DNA from: Candidatus Aenigmatarchaeota archaeon
Lineage (GTDB): Archaea > Aenigmatarchaeota > Aenigmatarchaeia > QMZP01
Length of the DNA stretch: 57,004 nucleotides
Direction: 5' to 3'
NCBI GenBank assembly: GCA_015520105.1
Contig: WAQT01000010.1
Coordinates: forward strand, 1-57,004
In this document: positions 1 through 49,908 of the stretch, one piece after another
Layout of the letters: every line of letters begins with the position of its first letter
Numbering within the stretch: position 1 is the first letter of the stretch
Position numbers and translations under genes: made by a program
The notes under the pieces: model-generated
Database searches by the model: none
What the model was told of the DNA's origin: nothing
Seen by the model: only the letters and a program-made list of their open reading frames with translations

Positions 1-1099
1 TCTTCCTGACCTTGAATTTTCTGTCCAGCCTCTTGAGAATCTCCACTATGCCGCCGTACTCGAGTTCGGAGTAACCGAGCATCGCGTTTCCAGAGAAGCC
101 CTGCCTCCTGATTTCCGTGGCTTTCTCAGAGACCTTCTGCCTCACGTGGTCCCAGTAGGGGTGATCGAAAGCGTCCGCGGGCTCTGTGAGCCTTCCCTTC
201 TGCACGCAGAACGCCGCGCATGAAACTATAGGAGGGCCGTCGAAGAAGGATATCGTGGAGTTGAGCTTCACAGGCATCAGGGGACCGTTGTGCGAGCCGC
301 GGCAGAAGCCGGCAACGTAGTGGCCTATGCTGAAGGGGGCGAGAACCTCGCCTGTTGCAGGGAACATCTTCTGCGTCCTCACGAGCATCACAGGGTCGTC
401 CTTTCCCGTGTATTTCCCTGCTATGTTGTGCAGCCGTGTGGTGGAGACAGCGGCGGCCTGGTCTTTCGTGGCCCTCGAGTATATCGACTCCACCACGAAC
501 CTTTCATTGTCGCGGAGAAGCGCGGCGAGGTCGTACATCTCCTCAGGAGTGCTGAGGGATATCACCCTGTCACCCTTCGTGTAGTTCACGTCCATCACAT
601 GGAAGGTGAAGCCCTTGCTGAGCTTCGGGGAGAGGAGTAGTCCTCCGTTGTACATCGGGTCAGCGAACGCGAGGAAGAGGGGAAGGTTGTACGCTCCGGG
701 TTCGGTCTTGTCCGCAGCGAAGAAGAGGAACGGTTCATTCGTTCTCTCCTCGAACTCCATCTCGGCCACAGCGGGGCCCATTCCCTTAACGTTTCCCGAG
801 AACGAGGACTTCAGGAGGTCCTGTCCCGCGCCGTACAGGCCCTGCTCCTTGGCAACTTTGGTTCCCTCGAGGAAGGCGTCCCACGCAAGCCTGTGTATCT
901 CCCTGCTGGACTTCCCGTGGGTATGCGTCATCAGTATCGCTATGTCGTCTCCTGTGTAGCTCACATAGAAGTCGATAAGGAGGTCGCGGCCGTGCGCCTT
1001 TACGTGATTTTTAACCGCGCTGAGAACCGCGTGGCTTGGTTTTATATGCCCTCCGATGCTTCCGATGTCTGCCTTTATCACAGAAAGCGTGATTTTCAT
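1..1099 (-). CDS. fbp: Fructose-1,6-bisphosphate aldolase/phosphatase (archaeal type), C-terminal end runs off the window
   Basis: Absent from the ORF track because there is no stop inside the window. My minus-strand translation from the ATG at 1099..1097 reads MKITLSVIKADIGSIGGHIKPSH...YTGDDIAILMTHTHG...GLYGAGQDLLKSSFSGNVKGMGP...RGSHNGPLMPVKLN, open to the window edge. This matches the hallmark layout of the family. Confidence 0.85.
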   Translation of the reverse strand, partial: MKITLSVIKADIGSIGGHIKPSHAVLSAVKNHVKAHGRDLLIDFYVSYTGDDIAILMTHTHGKSSREIHRLAWDAFLEGTKVAKEQGLYGAGQDLLKSSFSGNVKGMGPAVAEMEFEERTNEPFLFFAADKTEPGAYNLPLFLAFADPMYNGGLLLSPKLSKGFTFHVMDVNYTKGDRVISLSTPEEMYDLAALLRDNERFVVESIYSRATKDQAAAVSTTRLHNIAGKYTGKDDPVMLVRTQKMFPATGEVLAPFSIGHYVAGFCRGSHNGPLMPVKLNSTISFFDGPPIVSCAAFCVQKGRLTEPADAFDHPYWDHVRQKVSEKATEIRRQGFSGNAMLGYSELEYGGIVEILKRLDRKFKVRK

Positions 1100-1199
1100 A
1101 ATGAATATTATTGCGGCGCCGGGTTAAAAAGATGCTTCCTGAGCAGAGATAATATTAAGACAGAGATAATTTAATAGGGAACAAAGATAATATGATAGT

Positions 1200-2669
1200 A
1201 TGGGTGTGTTCTCCAAGACTTACACTGTCAGGAAAGGCGTGAAGGTTTACAAGCTCTTTATAGACGGGAGGTGGACAGAGGCCTCGAACAGGGCGACGTT
1301 CGATGTGAGGAACCCTGCCACAGGGAGGGTCATCGCAAGGGTTCAGAAGGCGCCGAAGGAGGACGCGGAGAGGGCGATAAAGTCTGCGTGGAAGGCGAGA
1401 AGCAGCATGGCTGAGATGCCCATGATAAAAAGGGTCGAGCTTCTCGAGAAGCTTTCCAGTCTTGTGGAGAAACACAGCAAGGAGCTTGTGGACACCATAG
1501 TGGCAGAGGCGGGCAAGCCGCTGAGCGTTGCGCAGGGAGAGGTGAAGGCAAGCGTGGAGAGGCTGAAGCTCGCTGTGGAAGAGGTCAAGGCGATGCGGGG
1601 AGAGTACATTCCCGGCGACTTAACTCCGGACACCATAGGGAAGTTCGGGATAGTGAAGAGGAAACCGCAGGGTGTGGTTCTGGCGATAGGGCCTTTCAAC
1701 TACCCGCTCTTCATTCCTGTCTCGAAGATAGCCCCGGCACTTGCATCAGGGAATTCCGTGGTGTTCAAGGCAGCGAGCGATGACCCAATATGCATGATAA
1801 TGTTTGCGCGGCTTGTGGAACTCTCCGGGTTTCCGAAGGGGTCTTTCAACATATTGACGGGGTCAGGAAGTGAGATAGGCGACTTCATCGTTTCGCATCC
1901 GATGGTAAGCATGATATCATTCACCGGCTCCTCGACTGCGGGGAAGAGGATCGCCTCCATCGCTGGAATGAAGAGGCTTCACCTCGAGCTTGGCGGGAAG
2001 TGTCCCGGAATCGTGTTCGACGACGCAGACCTGGAGGTGGCTGTGAAGGAATGCGCGAAGGGGAGCCTGAAGTTCCAGGGTCAGAGGTGCGACGCGCTCT
2101 CAAGGATAATAGTTCAGGAAGGGATATACGACGAGTTCGTGAGGAGGATAACGAAGGAAGCGAAGAGGTGGAAGATGGGAGACCCCAGAAAGAAGGATAC
2201 CATGATAGGGCCTCTGATAAACGAGAAAGCAGCGGACAGGGTGGAAAGCTTTATAGAGGATGCGGTGAAGAAGGGCGCGAAGCTGAAGACAGGAGGGAAG
2301 AGGAAGGGCCTCTACATAGAGCCGACTGTTCTTGCTGACGTGAACTCTTCGATGAGGATTTCGTGCGAGGAGACATTCGGCCCGGTTGTCGCGATAATGA
2401 AGTTCAGGACGTTCGATGAGGCGATAAGGATAGCTAACTCTTCGAATTACGGCCTTGATGAGAGCGTGTTCACAAGGGACGTGAACAAGGCTGTAAAGGC
2501 GGCGGAGCTTATAGAGGCCGGCACTGTCACGATAAACGCAGCCCCGTCGCATGGCCTCGGAAACTTCCCCTTCGGAGGAGACAAGGACTCCGGGATGGGA
2601 AGGGAGGGTATGAACTACTCCGTAGAGGAGATGACTAAGCTCCACACCATCGTGTTCAGCAACAAATGA
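1200..2669 (+). CDS. gapN: Aldehyde dehydrogenase, non-phosphorylating glyceraldehyde-3-phosphate dehydrogenase (GAPN)-like
   Basis: 489 aa ORF. It has the ALDH fold motifs GPFNYP (GAPN-type rather than PWNFP), ELGGK, and catalytic GQRC. Confidence 0.6.
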   Translation: MGVFSKTYTVRKGVKVYKLFIDGRWTEASNRATFDVRNPATGRVIARVQKAPKEDAERAIKSAWKARSSMAEMPMIKRVELLEKLSSLVEKHSKELVDTIVAEAGKPLSVAQGEVKASVERLKLAVEEVKAMRGEYIPGDLTPDTIGKFGIVKRKPQGVVLAIGPFNYPLFIPVSKIAPALASGNSVVFKAASDDPICMIMFARLVELSGFPKGSFNILTGSGSEIGDFIVSHPMVSMISFTGSSTAGKRIASIAGMKRLHLELGGKCPGIVFDDADLEVAVKECAKGSLKFQGQRCDALSRIIVQEGIYDEFVRRITKEAKRWKMGDPRKKDTMIGPLINEKAADRVESFIEDAVKKGAKLKTGGKRKGLYIEPTVLADVNSSMRISCEETFGPVVAIMKFRTFDEAIRIANSSNYGLDESVFTRDVNKAVKAAELIEAGTVTINAAPSHGLGNFPFGGDKDSGMGREGMNYSVEEMTKLHTIVFSNK

Positions 2670-5119: not shown

Positions 5120-5423
5120 GCCCCCGTAGCTCAGCTGGATAGAGCACTGGCCTTCTATCCCATATCTCAGGATAGAAGATTCGAGGCCTTCCGGCCGGTG
5201 AGAGGAAAGCCAGGGGTCGTGGGTTCAAAACACAAGAAGGGGAACACATTTCCCCTTCTTAGTGTCGTATCATCCCCTTTAGTACAGGATAACAAGGCAA
5301 GGGTTAACCGATAGTGCAAATGGAGAGGGAACCAAAGTTCCTACTCTTGTATCGTCTATCATGTCACAGGATAACAGGCAACACCATTAACTGGGGATAT
5401 AGAGGGGAATCCCTCCGGGGGCA
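5120..5423 (+). tRNA. tRNA-Arg(UCU) with two introns (about 5158..5207 at 37/38; about 5230..5408 in the T-loop)
   Basis: Acceptor GCCCCCG/CGGGGGC+A. D-arm GCTC-AGCTGGATA-GAGC. Anticodon stem CTGGC/GCCAG with loop CT-TCT-A. T-arm GTGGG-TTCAAA[intron]AT-CCCTC, which implies one U-U mismatch at 50:64. Confidence 0.7.
5250..5333. repeat. Conserved T-loop-intron module (copy in tRNA-Arg)
   Basis: The core 5268..5333 (TATCATCCCCTTTAGTACAGGATAACAAGGCAAGGGTTAACCGATAGTGCAAATGGAGAGGGAACC) matches 26858..26924, differing by one substitution and one 1-nt indel. Confidence 0.85.
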
Positions 5424-5426
5424 CAT

Positions 5427-5707
5427 GGGACCGTGGTGTAGTGGCATCATTGGAGCATGGGGCAGAACCCTTTTACGGGAGGCTGCCGCCTTCCTCAAAA
5501 GCGTTCACGGAAAATGTAAAAGGGTTTTACGGAGCGCTTCAGACCTGGGTTCGATAGAACCCTTTTGGACAGGCAAGCGTCCAAAAGCGTTCACGGAAAG
5601 ACAGCTTCCGCGTAACAACGGGAGCTGACGCTTCCGAACCCTTTTGGACAGGCAAACATCAACGCTTTTGCGTGCCTCCAGAAGGAACGGAAATCCCAGC
5701 GGTCCCA
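5427..5707 (+). tRNA. tRNA-Pro(GGG) with two introns (5463..5534 at 37/38; about 5555..5692 in the T-loop)
   Basis: Acceptor GGGACCG/CGGTCCC+A. D-arm GTGT-AGTGGCA-TCAT. Anticodon stem GGAGC/GCTTC with loop AT-GGG-G. T-arm CTGGG-TTCGA[intron]AT-CCCAG. It starts 3 nt after tRNA-Arg. Confidence 0.7.
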
Positions 5708-8765: not shown

Positions 8766-8805
8766 ATCAATTTCCTCCGGGTGCGGACGTTCGGCCAGCC
8801 TGAAG

Positions 8806-9040
8806 GCCGGAAGCGTGAGCTCCTGTTGTGTTTACCTGCATGTTTTCCGTACACGCTTTGGCGGAAGCGGGTGCCTGCCTGGTCATAACCAACTACATTG
8901 CGGACCAGGATTGCTTTGTGAGCTCCCGTCTTTGTTTTCAAGGGGTTTGGGTCAACAGCCTTTGGAGCACCTTCTCCTGCTCCCAACAGAAGGTGCATCA
9001 AGAGGGAGCTGACCGCTTCCATCCTGCGGCAGCCTCGAAA
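8806..9040. repeat. Intergenic repeat island 1 (modules shared with tRNA introns and island 2)
   Basis: 8830..8859 resembles 12391..12419. 8968..9033 matches 12446..12510 at roughly 94%. 8994..9020 is the exact reverse complement of 26627..26653 inside tRNA-Glu intron 1. Confidence 0.85.
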
Positions 9041-9094
9041 GGCTGTTAAGAACTAATTAATTATAATGGAATCGGGGGTTTATATAGGATTGTG

Positions 9095-12285: not shown

Positions 12286-12339
12286 GTTTTTATTTCCCGG
12301 TAGGTCTTAAATTGTTGGAGGGTTTTCCTCAGTGCTTAG

Positions 12340-12673
12340 AAGAGGCGGATTCGCGAGTTTCCGCTTCCATGTTGCGGAAGCATCCGTTACGTTTACCTGC
12401 ACGTTTTCCGTACACGCTTGTTTCCGTCAGGAAACTCCCTGCCGGCACCTTCTCCTGTTCCCAACAGAAGGTGCATCAAGAGGGAGCTATCGCTTCCATC
12501 CTGCGACAGCGTCTGTTGCGTTTACTTTGCGTATTTTCCGTACACGCTTGTTTCCGTCAGGAAACTCCCTGCCGTCAGGCAGAGGATTGCGGAAGTGTAA
12601 ACTCCCGTAAAAGGGTGTGCGGTAGCGGTGTTTCCGTGAACGCTTTAGCGCGCTTGCCTGCGCTAAAGGGTTC
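12340..12673. repeat. Intergenic repeat island 2 (internal 40-nt duplication plus modules shared with tRNA introns)
   Basis: 12404..12443 is identical to 12534..12573 (40 nt). 12446..12510 matches 8968..9033. 12631..12673 is an inverted copy of the tRNA-Pro intron unit at 5557..5599. Confidence 0.85.
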
Positions 12674-25559: not shown

Positions 25560-26363
25560 TTATCCTATGTATCTCAGCTGCTCCTTCCCCGAGACAGGAG
25601 CTGACTCGTCTTTTGTTATCTGCATTATCGCCTTTTTCTGGAGATTCTCCACCTTCTTTATGAACTTCTCCATCTCGGAGACCTTGGCCTCAAGCTCGCT
25701 CATGTCTATCTTGAGGTTAAGCACCTTTGTGAGGTTCTCAAGAACAGTCTCTGCTGCCTTCGGGTCAGTAACTATTGGGAACCCGGATGTCTCTCCGAGG
25801 AGGCACACTCCCTTCATTCCCCTCTCCTTTCCGAGACCGAGGAAGAGGCCTGAAGCTCCGACTATGTAGCCGACCTTCTCTCCTGCAGTGAACTTCACCT
25901 CCGTGTTCTTGAATCTCTTTATCAGCTCGGTGTGCGTGACAGCTCCGTACACTGAGGGCTTTTCTTCTATCTCCCCTGTCGCAAGGCCGCCGACCGTGAT
26001 TATCTCCTTCACGCCGAGCTTCTCCACAAAATCAAGGACAGCTTCCACGACCTCGTAGTGTCCGTGAGGGGAGAGGCTCTGGCAGTCTCCTACAAGGAAT
26101 ATAATGTCTCTCTCTCCCTTTTTCTTCGCCTTATAGTAGAAGAGTTCGTTCTTTAGGAGATGTATCATATTCTCGTCGTGGAGCATCACAAAGGGGAAGA
26201 AGTGCTCGGAGTAGAGCTGGGCGAATTTCTTTGCCTTGAGTTCGTCTATCATATAGCCCACTGCGACCCTTCCTATGTTTCCGACTCCGGGAAGGCCCTC
26301 TATCAGTATGGGGTTGCTGAGTTTGGGCTTCTCGAAAACCTTTATCACTGTCATAAGAATCAC
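25560..26363 (-). CDS. PAC2-family (proteasome assembly chaperone-like) protein
   Basis: 267 aa. N-terminus LIEGLPGVGNIGRVAVGYMIDEL, with a C-terminal coiled segment. Confidence 0.6.
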   Translation of the reverse strand: MILMTVIKVFEKPKLSNPILIEGLPGVGNIGRVAVGYMIDELKAKKFAQLYSEHFFPFVMLHDENMIHLLKNELFYYKAKKKGERDIIFLVGDCQSLSPHGHYEVVEAVLDFVEKLGVKEIITVGGLATGEIEEKPSVYGAVTHTELIKRFKNTEVKFTAGEKVGYIVGASGLFLGLGKERGMKGVCLLGETSGFPIVTDPKAAETVLENLTKVLNLKIDMSELEAKVSEMEKFIKKVENLQKKAIMQITKDESAPVSGKEQLRYIG

Positions 26364-26420
26364 GGATAGTCCGGATGTTTATATATGTTTTGCGTGCCTT
26401 ATAAATGGTTGCAGAAACAG

Positions 26421-26430
26421 ATTTAAAAAC
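26421..26430 (+). promoter_or_regulatory. Putative TATA box for tRNA-Glu
   Basis: ATTTAAAAAC lies about 28 nt upstream of the tRNA 5' end at 26453. Confidence 0.45.
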
Positions 26431-26452
26431 ACAGAAACAATGAAATTTACGC

Positions 26453-26961
26453 GCTCCCGTCGTCTAGCCCGGTCAAGGATACGAGCCTCTCGAATGAGCT
26501 TTTCTCAAGGAAAAAGCTCAACCAACAGGAGGCTTCCGCCTTCCAAGGGGGTTTTCCTCAAGGAAAAAGCTTTGCGGAACAAGCGTGTCACGACTCAGCT
26601 CCCTAAAATGGTTGGGAAGGTGCAAAGGAAGCGGTCAGCTCCCTCTTGATGCAAGAGGTTAACCTTTTGCGGAAGCGAGCGCGAGCGAAGCTCCTGTAAA
26701 AGGTTAGGGAGCAGGAGAAGGTGCAAAGGAGAAAGCTCGGGACGCGGGTTCAAAGCGCAAGAATGGGGACACATTCGTGCCTCGTCAATGAGGATTGTGG
26801 CACGAGACATCTCTGCAATGGTTATATTGGAGATGCAGATCCCCCTTCTTACCGCACTATCATCCCCTTTAATACAGGATAACAAGGCAAAGGGTTAACC
26901 GATAGTGCAAATGGAGAGGGAACCCAGGTTCCCCTCTGCGGTGGGAGTCCCGCCGGGAGCA
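26453..26961 (+). tRNA. tRNA-Glu(CUC) with two very long introns (26493..26733 at 37/38; about 26755..26947 in the T-loop)
   Basis: Acceptor GCTCCCG/CGGGAGC+A. Anticodon stem CGAGC/GCTCG with loop CT-CTC-G. T-arm GCGGG-TTCAAA[intron]T-CCCGC. Confidence 0.7.
26840..26924. repeat. Conserved T-loop-intron module (copy in tRNA-Glu)
   Basis: Near-identical to 5250..5333 in tRNA-Arg. Confidence 0.85.
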
Positions 26962-26967
26962 TCGGAA

Positions 26968-28290
26968 TTACCTGAACAGTCCCTTGCGGCTGTTCAGGGA
27001 CATTCTTTTCATTTTCTCAGTGAAGGTTTTGGTGGTTATCATCATTCCCTTCAGAAGCTTGAGGGCCCTGTCTCGTTTTCTCTTGCTGTGGGTTAGGTAT
27101 AGGTTCAGAAGGCAGAGGTAGTCCTGAATGTGCTTTGTTATGAGGAAGTTCTTTCTTACATGCTCTTTGCCGTTGTGACCAAGCCTGCTCCTTAGCTTAT
27201 CGTTGCCAAGAAGCTGTATTATGCGCTTGGCCGCCTCCCTGTTGGAGTCCACAAGGAAGCCTGTCCTGTTGTTTATCACCTGAAGGGGGATTCCGCCCCT
27301 TCTCTTCGCGACCACAGGGGTTGCCTTCCAGAGAGCCTCGGAAACCACCATTCCGAAACCCTCTCTCTTTGAGTTCTGTATGACAACATCGGATGTCCTC
27401 TGGAGGGCGTTAACCAGCAGGTCGGCGCGTTTCGTGATTATATGTATGTCCCCTGAATCGTTGTTAACCTTTTTTATGAGCCTGTTGTATATGAGCGGTC
27501 CCTCGGGGTCGTCTGTGGCCATGTCTCCTATCATCACAAGCCGGCAATCCGTCTTCTTCTTGACTTCCTCAAATATCTTCACTACACCGAGAGGGTCCTT
27601 CCATTTGTCGAATCTGGAGACCTGGCAGATTATGGGTTTGTCAAGGTCTATCCCGTTTCTGGAGAGGATTCTCTTGCATTGGCTCTTTGTGAGGTGTTTG
27701 TTCTTAAGCGAGAGTGGATCGAGGGGTGGGGTTATGAAGAATTTCGGTATCTTTATGTCCTTCTTCGAGTATTTCTTCATTGTGAGAATTATTCCGTCGT
27801 ATCTGTTTATGTAGCTGCTGAAGAACTTCCAGCTCTCCTTTCTCACCTTGCTTATGTCTATGTGGCATCTCCATATCCAGGGCTGTTTTTTCCTGTAATG
27901 CCTTATCATAGCAAGAGGCTGCGGGTCGTGGACTATTATCAGGTCGTGGTCGTCTATGTGGTTCATTATGGCGTTCTTCTCCACCTCTTCTTCGTAGAGT
28001 TTTATCATCGACTCGCTTATCTTCCTGTTCTCTCCCTGCAATATGTTATGGAATCTTTTTGTAACAGTGAAGAAGGAGTGGGAACCCTTGAGGAGGCGCC
28101 AGCCCGTCTTTATGCCGAGGTTGTTCATCAGGATTACGTGGCTGTTGAGTATCTCAGCCACCCCTCCTCCTGCTGACGTGGAGTTTATGTGGGTTATGTG
28201 CCTTCCTTTTAGGGGTTCTGCTGACTCGTATATCCTCTGTATTTCCTGTTTTCCGACTATTCTCGTGTAGTCGCTTATTCTCGGTATCAT
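26968..28290 (-). CDS. GT4 glycosyltransferase, trehalose glycosyltransferring synthase (TreT)-like
   Basis: The N-terminal block HINSTSAGGGVAEILNSHV...FFTVTKRFHNILQG closely resembles the TreT signature as I recall it. The C-terminal half is GT4-like. Confidence 0.6.
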   Translation of the reverse strand: MIPRISDYTRIVGKQEIQRIYESAEPLKGRHITHINSTSAGGGVAEILNSHVILMNNLGIKTGWRLLKGSHSFFTVTKRFHNILQGENRKISESMIKLYEEEVEKNAIMNHIDDHDLIIVHDPQPLAMIRHYRKKQPWIWRCHIDISKVRKESWKFFSSYINRYDGIILTMKKYSKKDIKIPKFFITPPLDPLSLKNKHLTKSQCKRILSRNGIDLDKPIICQVSRFDKWKDPLGVVKIFEEVKKKTDCRLVMIGDMATDDPEGPLIYNRLIKKVNNDSGDIHIITKRADLLVNALQRTSDVVIQNSKREGFGMVVSEALWKATPVVAKRRGGIPLQVINNRTGFLVDSNREAAKRIIQLLGNDKLRSRLGHNGKEHVRKNFLITKHIQDYLCLLNLYLTHSKRKRDRALKLLKGMMITTKTFTEKMKRMSLNSRKGLFR

Positions 28291-28421: not shown

Positions 28422-28629
28422 GGGCCCGTGGCTTAGTGGTTAGAGCGCCCGACTGATACAGGTTTCCCCTCGAACAGCAGCAGGGGCATGCCTGTGGATA
28501 TCGGGAGGTCGTGAGTTCGATACACCGCTTTTTACAGGAGCTTTCGTTTCCTCCAAAAGCGGTGGAGCAAAAACAGGCACAGTTAACCGATAATTCGGTT
28601 AACAGTGAACGAGAATCTCACCGGGCCCA
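28422..28629 (+). tRNA. tRNA-Ile(GAU) with two introns (28459..28499 at 37/38; 28521..28614 in the T-loop)
   Basis: Acceptor GGGCCCG/CGGGCCC+A. D-arm GCTT-AGTGGTTA-GAGC. Anticodon stem CCCGA/TCGGG with loop CT-GAT-A. T-arm GTGAG-TTCGA[intron]AT-CTCAC. Confidence 0.75.
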
Positions 28630-38777: not shown

Positions 38778-39716
38778 ATGGCAAGGGTTCTTGTCACAGG
38801 AGGCGCGGGGTTCATAGGCTCGAACATAGCTGAGGCCCTTCTGGAGAAGGGTTATGAGGTCAGGGTTCTTGACAACGAATCTACCGGAAACAGGAAGAAT
38901 CTCTCAGGCCTTGCGGGTCTGGAATTTCTCAGAGGCGACATAAAGGATATGGAAACCGTGAGCAAAGCCATGGAAGGCATTGATTTCGTGCTTCACCAGG
39001 CAGCGCTGCCCTCTGTGAGCAGGTCTGTGGAGAATCCTCTGGAGACCAACGGTGTTAACGTGGAGGGGAGCCTTAACGTTCTCGAGGCAGCGAGAAAGAG
39101 GGATGTTGAAAGGATAGTGTACGCCTCATCTTCTTCGGTTTATGGCGACACCGAGATTCTGCCCAAGAGGGAGGACATGGAGCCGAAACCCCTCTCTCCC
39201 TATGCGGCGAGCAAGGTCGCGATGGAATATTACTTCTCGGTGTTCAACAACGTTTACGGGATAAAGGCAATCGGCCTTCGATACTTCAACGTCTACGGCC
39301 CGAGGCAGAACCCTGAATCCGAGTACGCTGCTGTTGTTCCGAGGTTCATAAAGGCGGTTCTTTCCGGAGAGAGGCCTGTGATATACGGCGATGGAGAGCA
39401 GACAAGAGACTTCACTTATGTAAAGGACGTTGTTCAGGCAAACCTGCTTGCGATGAACGCGAAGGGAATCGGGCATGAGGTGTTCAACATAGCGAGGGGG
39501 GAAAGGATAAGCATAAACAGGCTGCTGGAGATGATATGCAATATCGCTGGAAGGGACGTCAGTCCGGAGCACAGGGAACCGAGGAAGGGAGACATAAGGG
39601 ATTCCCTTGCGGACATAAGCAAAGCCAAGGAGAGGATTGGATACTCTCCTGAATACGATATAGAGAAGGGGTTGAGGGAAACCGTTGACTGGTTCAGGGC
39701 GAGGACGGATGCTTGA
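38778..39716 (+). CDS. NAD-dependent UDP-sugar 4-epimerase (WbpP/TviC-like)
   Basis: TGGAGFIGSN, HQAALPSVSRSVENP, SSSSVYGD and YAASK motifs. Confidence 0.7.
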   Translation: MARVLVTGGAGFIGSNIAEALLEKGYEVRVLDNESTGNRKNLSGLAGLEFLRGDIKDMETVSKAMEGIDFVLHQAALPSVSRSVENPLETNGVNVEGSLNVLEAARKRDVERIVYASSSSVYGDTEILPKREDMEPKPLSPYAASKVAMEYYFSVFNNVYGIKAIGLRYFNVYGPRQNPESEYAAVVPRFIKAVLSGERPVIYGDGEQTRDFTYVKDVVQANLLAMNAKGIGHEVFNIARGERISINRLLEMICNIAGRDVSPEHREPRKGDIRDSLADISKAKERIGYSPEYDIEKGLRETVDWFRARTDA

Positions 39717-48993: not shown

Positions 48994-49908
48994 TCATTCG
49001 ATGTTCCTTATGTAATGCCTCGCGGCCTTTCTCACAGCCGCCTCGGAGTCAAGCTTTGGTTCCCATCCAAGGGATTTAAGCCGCGATGTGTCAAGAAGCA
49101 TTACCGGAACGTCTCCCTTCCATCCCCTGTCCCCGCCAGTGAAAGCGAATTCCGGGGCAACGTCCATCTCCTCGCACACTATCTCCGCTATCCTTTTCAC
49201 CTTTATCTGCGTTTCGGAACCGACGTTGAATATCTGAAATCCCTTTGTTTCGCGAAAGCCTGTGAGCATTCCGTTTATCGTGTCCTCCACATCAAGGTAT
49301 GACTTGTTCTGCTCGCCGTTTCCAAGAATCTCCAGACGATTGGGGTTTCTTTTCAGCTTCCTGACGAAGTCGAAGACCACGCCGTGATCTGAGCCTTCGC
49401 CTATTATGTTTGCGAGCCTGAATATCCACGCATTCATTCCGAATGTGTGGTGGTAGGAAGACAGGAGCGCCTCGCATGAGAGTTTTGACGCTCCGTATAC
49501 TGATATGGGCTGGAGGGGAGAGTAGTCTTCTGGTGTGGGGATGACTCTGGCCTCTCCGTAGACAGCGGAGGTGGACGTGAACACGATGTTCTTCGCTCCG
49601 GAAGAACGCATCGACTCAAGGAGGCGGAACGTGGCGAGTATGTTCTGATTGATGTCCCTTTCCGGACTCTTCTCTCCCGACCTTATGTCCCTGTTCGCAG
49701 CAAGATGGAACACGGTTTCCACTCCGTCGAGCAGGTTGGAAAGATTATCTGTCAGAAGGTCTGCCCTGACAAATTCTATGTTTTCGTGTTTGAGAGGATT
49801 GTTTCCGGACGAGAGGTTGTCGACCACTCTAACGCGGTGCCCCTCGCCCGCAAGCCTTTCTGCCAGATGGGAGCCTATGAATCCCGCGCCTCCTGTGACA
49901 AGCATCAT
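48994..49908 (-). CDS. NAD-dependent epimerase/dehydratase (SDR)
   Basis: LVTGGAGFIGSHL, TSTSAVYG and YGASK motifs. Confidence 0.7.
   Translation of the reverse strand: MMLVTGGAGFIGSHLAERLAGEGHRVRVVDNLSSGNNPLKHENIEFVRADLLTDNLSNLLDGVETVFHLAANRDIRSGEKSPERDINQNILATFRLLESMRSSGAKNIVFTSTSAVYGEARVIPTPEDYSPLQPISVYGASKLSCEALLSSYHHTFGMNAWIFRLANIIGEGSDHGVVFDFVRKLKRNPNRLEILGNGEQNKSYLDVEDTINGMLTGFRETKGFQIFNVGSETQIKVKRIAEIVCEEMDVAPEFAFTGGDRGWKGDVPVMLLDTSRLKSLGWEPKLDSEAAVRKAARHYIRNIE

Follow-up and report, generated by a model that had tools for sequence, protein, structure and literature searches.

How does a tRNA gene with 75 nt of exon come to occupy 509 nt, is it still a working gene, and what fills the difference? 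These questions are raised by a locus at 26453-26961 on the plus strand of the window (the whole 57,004-nt stretch of DNA that was analysed, contig WAQT01000010.1), which comes from a hydrothermal-vent archaeon of the Aenigmatarchaeota (DPANN). A first-pass annotation, made from the letters alone, had proposed here a tRNA-Glu(CUC) gene stretched by two introns of 241 nt and about 193 nt. The proposal was confirmed: the locus is an intact tRNA-Glu(CUC) gene with two unusually long introns of the splicing-endonuclease type. The gene is probably a working one, whose two protein-spliced bulge-helix-bulge (BHB) introns, located at old sites, have been enlarged by non-autonomous hairpin repeats.

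An intact tRNA-Glu(CUC) gene split into three exons

The locus consists of three exons (40 + 21 + 14 nt) and two introns, whose coordinates and lengths agree exactly with those first proposed (Table 1). Spliced in silico, the exons gave a 75-nt tRNA-Glu(CUC) that ARAGORN folded into a perfect cloverleaf with every stem perfect, including a 7-bp acceptor stem, a D arm, a 5-bp anticodon stem with a 7-nt loop, a 5-bp T stem with a UUCRANY loop and a discriminator A, after which CCA is not encoded. The annotation had held that exons failing a tRNA model would speak against it; ARAGORN recognised them. The unspliced gene was missed by ARAGORN with and without intron mode, and by the Rfam tRNA model (RF00005) both at the gathering threshold and at E<=10, as is expected of a gene with two long introns, one of which lies outside the anticodon loop. 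The unconstrained fold of all 509 nt recovered the acceptor, anticodon and T stems (z = -4.4).

An A/T-rich, TATA-like box, a putative promoter, is located upstream of the gene; in the orthologues, TTTATAT or TTTATAAA stands at a similar distance. Downstream, between the convergent tRNA-Glu and glycosyltransferase genes, a 9-bp hairpin followed by a T-rich run looks like a terminator and may act as one. By analogy with known archaeal tRNA maturation, its own TATA-like promoter would drive transcription of the gene into a precursor at least about 509 nt long, in which the exons would form the acceptor, anticodon and T stems. The loop nucleotides CUCU and UUCA would pair with the intron ends GGAG and UGGG, placing the cut sites in 3-nt bulges. 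EndA would then cut after 26492, 26733, 26754 and 26947, an RtcB-type ligase would join the exons and probably circularise the introns, and CCA would be added last.

Splice sites at positions 37/38 and 59/60

At 37/38 the junctions read cgagcCUCU[CG^A] ... GGAG[AA^A]gcucg (square brackets, bulges; ^, cut site). C32-U35 pair with the GGAG before the 3' junction in a 4-bp central helix, and C36-G37^A and A-A^A38 form the two 3-nt bulges beside the 5-bp outer helix, the anticodon stem. At 59/60 the junctions read gcgggUUCA[AA^G] ... UGGG[AG^U]cccgc, in which U54-A57 pair with UGGG, and A58-A59^G and A-G^U60 are the two 3-nt bulges beside the 5-bp T stem as outer helix. With symmetric cuts and an outer helix made of exon sequence, both junctions have the 3-4-3 BHB architecture. 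The central-helix strands AGGRG and UGGR are kept in the orthologues, as are the intron ends AGGRGAR^ and UGGRRR^. A group I, group II or LAGLIDADG intron was also considered and rejected, as the introns had no Rfam match to such a class and the open reading frames (ORFs) overlapping them had no Pfam match at E<=1.

Table 1 Coordinates of the tRNA-Glu(CUC) gene, its intron modules and related features in the window (^, cut site).
Feature	Positions	Strand	Content	Basis
TATA-like box (putative promoter)	26422-26429	+	A/T-rich TTTAAAAA, 24-31 nt upstream of tRNA position 1	Read directly
Exon 1	26453-26492	+	tRNA positions 1-37: acceptor 5' strand, D arm, anticodon stem 5' strand, loop CUCUCG with anticodon CUC	In-silico splicing and ARAGORN; splice alignment
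Intron 1	26493-26733	+	241 nt, canonical 37/38	3' end AGGRGAR^ kept in orthologues
Module E	26494-26551	+	58 nt, ancestral-type part of intron 1: hairpin GAGCUUUU-CUCAAGGA-AAAAGCUC, linker AACCAACAGGAG, second hairpin, CUUCCAAGG	Covariance model, 46 bits, E=2e-7
Partial duplicate of module E hairpin	26553-26579	+	UUUCCUCAAGGAAAAAGCU, then UUGCGGAA	Repeat families D1/D2/D9
Two tandem module B units	26595-26629, 26635-26730	+	TCAGCUCCC-loop-GGGA..GAAGGUGCAAAGGA	Repeats D3, D7
Nested hairpin in second module B loop	26654-26706	+	53 nt, palindrome GCAAGAGGUUAACCUUUUGC	Repeats I2, I5
Exon 2	26734-26754	+	tRNA positions 38-59: A38, anticodon stem 3' strand GCUCG, 4-nt variable loop, T stem 5' GCGGG, UUCAAA	Positional complementarity test (30 intron-bearing genes)
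Intron 2	26755-26947	+	193 nt, T loop 59/60	Position and UGGRRR^U end kept in orthologues
P1	26759-26850	+	Long hairpin AAGAA.GGGGA / UCCCC.UUCUU, starts at 5' junction	Folds
Multi-copy core	26842-26932	+	P1 3' strand, P2, start of P3	Identity and word depth
P2	26854-26908	+	Loop AAUACAGGAUAACAAGGC	
P3	26913-26937	+		
Exon 3	26948-26961	+	tRNA positions 60-73: U60, T stem 3' CCCGC, acceptor 3' CGGGAGC, discriminator A	
Terminator-like hairpin	26971-27020	not assigned	9 bp, CCUGAACAG/CUGUUCAGG, then T-rich run	Repeat search
tRNA-Arg(UCU)	5120-5423	+	37/38 intron 50 nt, 59/60 intron 180 nt	
tRNA-Pro(GGG)	5427-5707	+	37/38 intron about 72 nt, 59/60 intron 138 nt	
Intergenic hairpin array 1	8766-9094	modules on -	Upstream of scpA, between co-oriented minus-strand genes	
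Intergenic hairpin array 2	12286-12673	modules on -	Between UDP-glucose dehydrogenase and DUF498 genes, co-oriented on the minus strand	
tRNA-Ile(GAU)	28422-28629	+	37/38 intron 41 nt, 59/60 intron 94 nt	
tRNA-Ala(CGC)	28933-28814	-	37/38 intron 48 nt, no 59/60 intron	

The locus in independent sequence data

A gene of this build could be an assembly artefact, that is, a chimeric path through repeats that joins different tRNA loci. Repeats abound in the region, the public contigs L001 and L002 both stop at 26659, the Logan assembly splits the region into 57-145-nt unitigs, and a second tRNA-Glu copy in the related locus L037 (copy 1, described below) resembles such a chimera. However, the unitigs of DNA run X1 tiled 26000-27400 with overlaps at a depth of 23-42x, the flanking single-copy depth being 29x, and one 145-nt unitig ran from the end of intron 1 through exon 2 into the start of intron 2. 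Independently, single contigs of run X2 covered 26428-26707 and 26678-26869, and L001 and L002 were 100% identical over 26659-27000. Ambiguity of the path was left only in the core stretch 26869-26895. An artefact is thereby made highly improbable. In all, the locus was contained in three DNA runs labelled hydrothermal vent metagenome, and its DNA also occurred in an ENA vent-metagenome scaffold and in the metagenome-assembled genome (MAG) GCA_027054295.1. A 12-nt insertion (TTAACCTTTTGA) after 26658 in run X2, at the palindrome GGTTAACC in intron 1, represents an indel polymorphism between vent samples. Since both public contigs end inside a repeat, such repeats break assemblies exactly at tRNA genes.

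A decaying pseudogene, in which repeats invaded a tRNA gene that was no longer used, would account for the failure of both ARAGORN and the Rfam tRNA model on the genomic form, and L037 does have a second, chimeric copy whose 3' exon comes from another tRNA. Against this, the 75 exon nucleotides still form a perfect cloverleaf and equal those of the L037 orthologue except for one D-loop base. The insertions are confined to the two ancestral intron sites and never lie in exons, the BHB geometry is intact at both junctions, the promoter-like box is kept, and four other tRNA genes of the window are built alike. Furthermore, the DNA-run contigs held no intronless allele, neither of the joints 26492>26734 and 26754>26948 being found. 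An uninterrupted tRNA-Glu at the syntenic site of relatives, which the first-pass annotation had named, together with an unexpressed locus here, as the mark of a pseudogene, was not what the relatives had; their syntenic copies carry introns at the same positions. We therefore give decay very little credence.

Orthologues and the length of the introns

tRNA-Glu(CUC) is located upstream of PAC2-rpoK-enolase in relatives too. Nine syntenic or related orthologues with the same tRNA had introns of 0-82 nt at 37/38 and 15-281 nt at 59/60, and four spliced sequences (the window, L003, L004 and L005) gave the same 75-nt tRNA type in ARAGORN. Among the orthologues examined individually (Table 2), the 59/60 position was occupied in the window and in seven distinct orthologues, and the 37/38 position in the window and four of those. 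The best-supported reading is that both intron positions are old in the lineage and that the exceptional length is probably secondary.

Table 2 Introns of individually examined tRNA-Glu(CUC) orthologues (PAC2 identity is that to the window protein).
Locus	PAC2 identity	37/38 intron	59/60 intron	Remark
L003 = L033	85%	13 nt	16 nt	Plus 26-nt D-loop intron
L037	83%	none	281 nt	
L039	81%	30 nt	158 nt	
L041	79%	none	120 nt	
L004	77%	78 nt	77 nt	
L005	n/a	74 nt	86 nt	
L038	75%	none	15 nt	Complete genome CP070801.1

A further 120 tRNA-Glu loci sharing the D arm were sampled and parsed by structure-defined positions, which yielded 66 distinct complete genes. The anticodon stem across 37/38 was complementary at five of five pairs in 26 of the 30 genes that have additional nucleotides between position 37 and the T arm, and these 26 stems, with strands defined by position, comprised 15 different combinations, indicating that the exon halves co-evolve across the intron. 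The window gene was the longest of the 66 (509 nt, followed by 356 and 263 nt); its 37/38 intron was three times the next longest (241 vs 82 nt), and its T-loop intron was second only to that of L037 (193 vs 281 nt). Archaeal tRNA introns reviewed in 2014 measured 11-129 nt, with medians of 12-25 nt (PMC4090602). The 241 and 193 nt found here exceed this range and amount to about twice the reviewed maximum. The parse by position replaced a splice alignment in which 113 tRNA-Glu genes from metagenomes were matched to the window tRNA, because that alignment pulled exon calls towards the query; the giant introns that it gave for L080, L098 and L161 were false.

Three related arrangements were observed among these loci. 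L037 contains at 105-~600 (+) a second tRNA-Glu copy composed of Glu 5' exons, a T-loop intron belonging to the same family and a foreign 3' exon (TCCCGGCCGGTCCA), which arose either by recombination across homologous introns or through misassembly induced by repeats. In L115 at 918-1985 (+), and identically in L124, a 29-nt tRNA-Glu 5' fragment is followed by ~990 nt and then by a complete tRNA-Glu(CUC) with a D-loop intron. The ~990-nt stretch holds an ORF with a LAGLIDADG-like GDGS motif, and the arrangement looks like a mobile insertion beside a tRNA-Glu gene. In tRNA-Glu(UUC) genes from other metagenomes (L100, L101, L120, L142, L056, L066, L113 and L122) the 37/38 introns, of 39-52 nt, belong to a different family; these introns share GAUGA...CGAAA-type motifs that are perhaps K-turn or box-like.

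Introns composed of repeat modules

The repeats noted in intron 1 by the first-pass annotation, and its hairpins of 8-10 bp, are present far beyond chance. TTTTCTCAAGGAAAAAGCT, present at 26500 and again at 26553 with a single T/C difference, includes a 15-nt exact core, for which the chance expectation of an exact 15-mer repeat in 241 nt is ~3e-5. GAAGGTGCAAAGGA occurs exactly at 26616 and 26717, TCAGCTCCCT is present twice, and the introns contain several perfect or near-perfect hairpins of 8-11 bp. Both introns were more structured than shuffled controls (z = -2.1 for intron 1 and -2.8 for intron 2).

The ancestral-type part of intron 1 is module E. A covariance model built from eight copies, with the window copy among the training sequences, located it at 16 places at E<1e-3 across seven loci (L068 duplicates L004) and at three tRNA positions; in all, eight or more relatives have the module. 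The 37/38 intron of L004, L005 and L088 is homologous to module E and consists of it entirely, and the module also forms the T-loop intron in L005, L047 and L136 and the D-loop intron in L043. Other tRNAs of L004, L005, L047 and L088 carry it as well, for example tRNA-Ile of L005. In the eight copies AAAAGGAG...CUUCCA is invariant and the hairpin interiors covary. The ~180 nt of intron 1 beyond module E consist of the hairpin duplicate, the two module B units, the second of which provides the 3' splice-site context, and the nested hairpin. Segments 26627-26653 and 26707-26724 have 100% identical counterparts in intergenic DNA at 9020-8994(-) and 8984-8967(-), and module B segments match intergenic 12488-12472 at 100% and 12462-12445 at 94%. 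At the place of the nested hairpin the spacing is 53 nt in the intron vs 9 nt in the intergenic module B copy, and the hairpin was ~4-5-fold over-represented in the sample (depth 135 vs 29). A nested BHB intron around this insert (26649/26705) was tried and was indistinguishable from chance.

Intron 2 contains three hairpins, P1, P2 and P3, a layout that recurs in L041 and L039 despite sequence divergence, and the base of P1 covaries in relatives (GCGC/CGC, ACAC/GUGU, GCC/GGC, GGCGC/GUGCC). Segment 26858-26924 is 97% identical over 67 nt to 5268-5333 in the T-loop intron of tRNA-Arg, 21 kb away; by alignment, an apical insert of ~65-70 nt in P1 (about 26775-26835, two sub-hairpins) is missing from the tRNA-Arg copy. 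The word depth of the core was 609-801 vs a baseline of 29, corresponding to 20-28 copy equivalents in the source metagenome, and loose ends showed that this intron start also follows other T loops (GGUUCGAA^GCGCAAGAAGGGG...). Large indels made the whole T-loop intron family (six sequences) too poorly alignable for a covariance model, and only module E was modelled. The exact pattern of the core had 0 matches in GTDB species genomes (185,579), JGI metagenomes and IMG/VR viral contigs, and that of module A had 0 matches in IMG/VR. A viral origin is therefore unsupported and the core appears lineage-specific. A tRNA-like shape of intron 2, with a closing helix and three hairpins, was rejected, as the hairpin loops carry no tRNA signatures. 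One copy of the loop motif CAGGATAACA(A)GGC lies in the T-loop intron of tRNA-Glu (26874-26889) and two lie in that of tRNA-Arg (5375-5392); the motif resembles GGGATAACAGGC of large-subunit rRNA, near a classic intron homing site, in an 11-mer match that is not statistically compelling.

Modules were also found outside tRNA-Glu genes. Two copies of module A (GAACCCUUU-hairpin-AAAGCGUUCACGGAAAGA) make up the T-loop intron of tRNA-Pro; the same module forms the T-loop intron of tRNA-Glu in L004, L058 and L077 and opens the intergenic array at 12673. Array 2 measures 388 nt (fold z = -5.7), and the corresponding spacer has only 39 nt in L033. The modules are thus multi-copy, short, non-coding and extragenic, in the manner of miniature inverted-repeat transposable elements (MITEs) or repetitive extragenic palindromic (REP) sequences. 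Consistent ends, terminal inverted repeats (TIRs) and target-site duplications could not be defined by eye for any module. Their presence outside tRNA genes indicates repeat behaviour at the DNA level and not only copying of whole introns. Excision of the intergenic arrays at BHB motifs was considered and dropped, since matches were no commoner than in shuffles (6 vs 7.2; 1 vs 3.5). The short ancestral introns were probably neutral safe havens in which small hairpin modules accumulated and nested, such accretion being tolerated because the whole interior would be removed at the RNA level. The modules themselves are presumably selfish and not useful.

Weighing the alternatives

Several observations count against a working gene with spliced, repeat-enlarged introns. 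Neither junction has the strict helix-bulge-helix-bulge-helix (hBHBh') form, as the inner helix h' has 0 bp in intron 1 and 1 bp in intron 2. Both introns take the relaxed helix-bulge-helix/bulge-helix-loop (hBH/BHL) form, in which the central helix is followed by a multi-hairpin loop that it closes and by no inner helix; this relaxed form is known for broad-specificity EndAs. The T-loop central helix UUCA/UGGG has two G-U pairs, and the canonical T-loop register lies 5.7 kcal/mol above the free minimum free energy. BHB-like geometry is not rare in hairpin-rich sequence (22 matches vs 12 in shuffles). Geometry alone is therefore weak, and the weight rests on the agreement of the sites with the cloverleaf and on the conserved complementary intron ends. 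EndA and RtcB were not found in Pfam scans of window ORFs, which covered 56 of the longest ORFs from a non-overlapping window set of 60. As the two genes lie outside the window, the specificity of EndA was taken from the literature, in which DPANN EndA variants are associated with disrupted tRNA genes (PMC5829648). The run search found no RNA run with the locus. The constancy of module E across organisms and the three-hairpin layout common to L041 and L039 likewise belong here, and they also favour another content for the introns.

That content would be a functional non-coding RNA, for example excised circles that sponge up a protein, serve as guides or regulate tRNA maturation. Two candidates stand out, the T-loop intron with its P1-P2-P3 hairpins and conserved AAUACAGGAUAACAAGGC loop, and module E, whose invariant motifs and covarying hairpins recur in eight copies from different organisms. 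Both introns are structured beyond shuffles, and a precedent exists in the tRNA-Trp intron with a box C/D guide (PMC4090602). However, an Rfam search of the introns, which the first-pass annotation had recommended as a check for cargo, returned no family at gathering or at E<=10 apart from one meaningless match at E=6.7, and no Rfam snoRNA family lay inside either intron. The annotation had seen neither a C/D-box pattern nor a convincing ORF, and it was right on both counts. With RUGAUGA/CUGA as the sought boxes, no box pair was found, CUGA being absent from the sense strand of both introns and a single C-like box with one mismatch being present. No H/ACA-like layout was found in the introns. 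Protein cargo such as a homing endonuclease was equally unsupported, as the overlapping ORFs of 53-124 aa contained no Pfam domain. The most repeated part is near-identical within the genome, and its exact pattern is absent from the species genomes, metagenomes and viral contigs searched, so that a recent lineage-specific burst fits better than an ancient functional RNA. Moreover, the same tRNA has 13-16-nt introns or none in relatives, and the interiors differ by large indels and nested insertions. We regard a functional RNA as unlikely. The suggestion that the introns could carry cargo holds in so far as they carry a mosaic of repeat modules, and not for a recognisable functional RNA.

The positions 37/38 and 59/60 coincide with the two tRNA-gene sublocations usually targeted by integrases. 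Introns might accordingly be kept as a shield against integrating viruses or plasmids, breaking the anticodon-loop and T-loop targets, as in the hypothesis of Randau and Soll, which is discussed in PMC4090602 and PMC4033280. The L115 arrangement, with a tRNA-Glu 5' fragment and a LAGLIDADG-like ORF next to the gene, would agree with it. Nevertheless, a short intron would suffice for this purpose, which leaves the 241 and 193 nt and the repeat mosaic unexplained, and the window showed neither an integrase, among the ORFs scanned, nor an att-like partial tRNA copy. As an account of these introns the shield is improbable; it is compatible with the enlargement of old spliced introns by repeats and is not a true alternative to it.

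A further reading, which we put forward tentatively and hold to be possible although not favoured, is that modules E, A and B and the T-loop core constitute a previously undescribed non-autonomous mobile-element family of Aenigmatarchaeota, residing both between genes and in BHB introns. Spliced introns would offer it cost-free landing sites, and it would perhaps seed new introns, for example the T-loop intron of tRNA-Ile, which is missing in L037. In a stronger form of this reading, the T-loop intron core would also be released as a functional circular RNA. If true, the mobile-element reading would explain, concretely and at the DNA level, how archaeal tRNA introns grow and undergo their so far unexplained "transposition".

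Relation to known systems

The tRNA-Glu gene resembles the archaeal multi-intron tRNAs with relaxed BHB motifs in being protein-spliced, in combining 37/38 with a non-canonical site, in the hBH motif and in the link to DPANN EndA. It differs in its longer introns (241/193 nt), their mosaics of nested multi-copy modules and the presence of T-loop introns in four of five tRNA genes. For Thermoproteales, near-identical introns across tRNA genes and positions were described as intron transposition in 2010, according to the summaries in PMC4090602 and PMC4033280. The introns studied here behave like such transposed BHB introns of the Fujishima type, as the core is common to tRNA-Glu and tRNA-Arg, and module E is found at 37/38, at 59/60 and in the D loop, in tRNA-Glu and tRNA-Ile. 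Here, however, the phylum is another one, the modules are smaller than an intron and also intergenic, and they are stacked and nested into much longer introns.

The euryarchaeal tRNA-Trp intron with box C/D RNA is the classic case of cargo and is likewise a long archaeal tRNA intron with a structured interior, whereas the tRNA-Glu introns have no C and D boxes and no Rfam snoRNA match and are not members of that class. Bacterial REP sequences and bacterial interspersed mosaic elements (BIMEs), MITEs and palindrome-associated transposable elements (PATEs) share with the modules imperfect palindromes of ~30-90 nt, multiple copies, intergenic arrays between co-oriented genes, nesting and a non-coding nature. 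The modules have no definable TIRs or target duplications and no transposase among the ORFs scanned in the 57 kb, and residence in spliced introns is not a trait of REP sequences; the likeness is thus one of resemblance and not of membership. As in tRNA intronic circular RNAs (tricRNAs) and archaeal circular intron RNAs, EndA and RtcB would release circles of 241 and 193 nt, as an expectation from the pathway.

Compared with the reviewed cases, the length of the introns, their modular nested build and the occurrence of the same modules in intergenic DNA are distinctive. On the unsettled question of how archaeal tRNA introns arise, move and lengthen, this lineage provides a graded natural series, a single orthologous gene whose introns range from 0 or 13-16 nt to 241 and 281 nt. 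Together with the modules, their nesting, the indel between samples and the intergenic copies, the series makes insertion at the DNA level and reverse splicing at the RNA level directly comparable.

Other tRNA genes and the genomic neighbourhood

All five tRNA genes of the window have introns. In-silico splicing and ARAGORN confirmed four of them with two introns each, and T-loop introns of 94-193 nt were present in these four. Standard finders (ARAGORN in intron mode and Rfam) detected tRNA-Ala and missed the other four. The tRNA complements of DPANN MAGs, and the completeness and codon-usage inferences drawn from them, are therefore likely underestimated. The T-loop intron is not present in tRNA-Ile of L037, and it was therefore gained in the lineage of the window or lost in that of L037.

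The tRNA-Glu gene is flanked on one side by genes for a PAC2 chaperone, RpoK and enolase, and on the other by those for a TreT-like glycosyltransferase and CDP-archaeol synthase. The PAC2 homologues are named as Candidatus Aenigmarchaeota/Aenigmatarchaeota, and an Aenigmatarchaeota MAG is among the closest enolase loci. The Pfam scans of the 56 long ORFs in the 57-kb window gave housekeeping and glycosylation genes only, with no transposase, integrase or HUH/Y1 protein. The glycosyltransferase ORF (26968-28290) encodes 440 aa and is 31 aa longer than its L033 orthologue (409 aa). Its 3' end overlaps a weak box C/D sRNA-like match at 26992-27049 (-) (Rfam sR17, 16.9 bits, E=0.24), which reads AAUGAUGA ... 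CUGA ... CUGA with atypical spacing. Inside the same gene, word depth rises to ~230 vs 29 over ~37 nt (27136-27172; window 27128-27174), which may reflect a coding motif shared with related strains or a short repeat. Elsewhere, a 32-nt repeat pair (38790-38821 and 49871-49902) lies inside two paralogous NAD-dependent epimerase genes and most likely reflects their paralogy.

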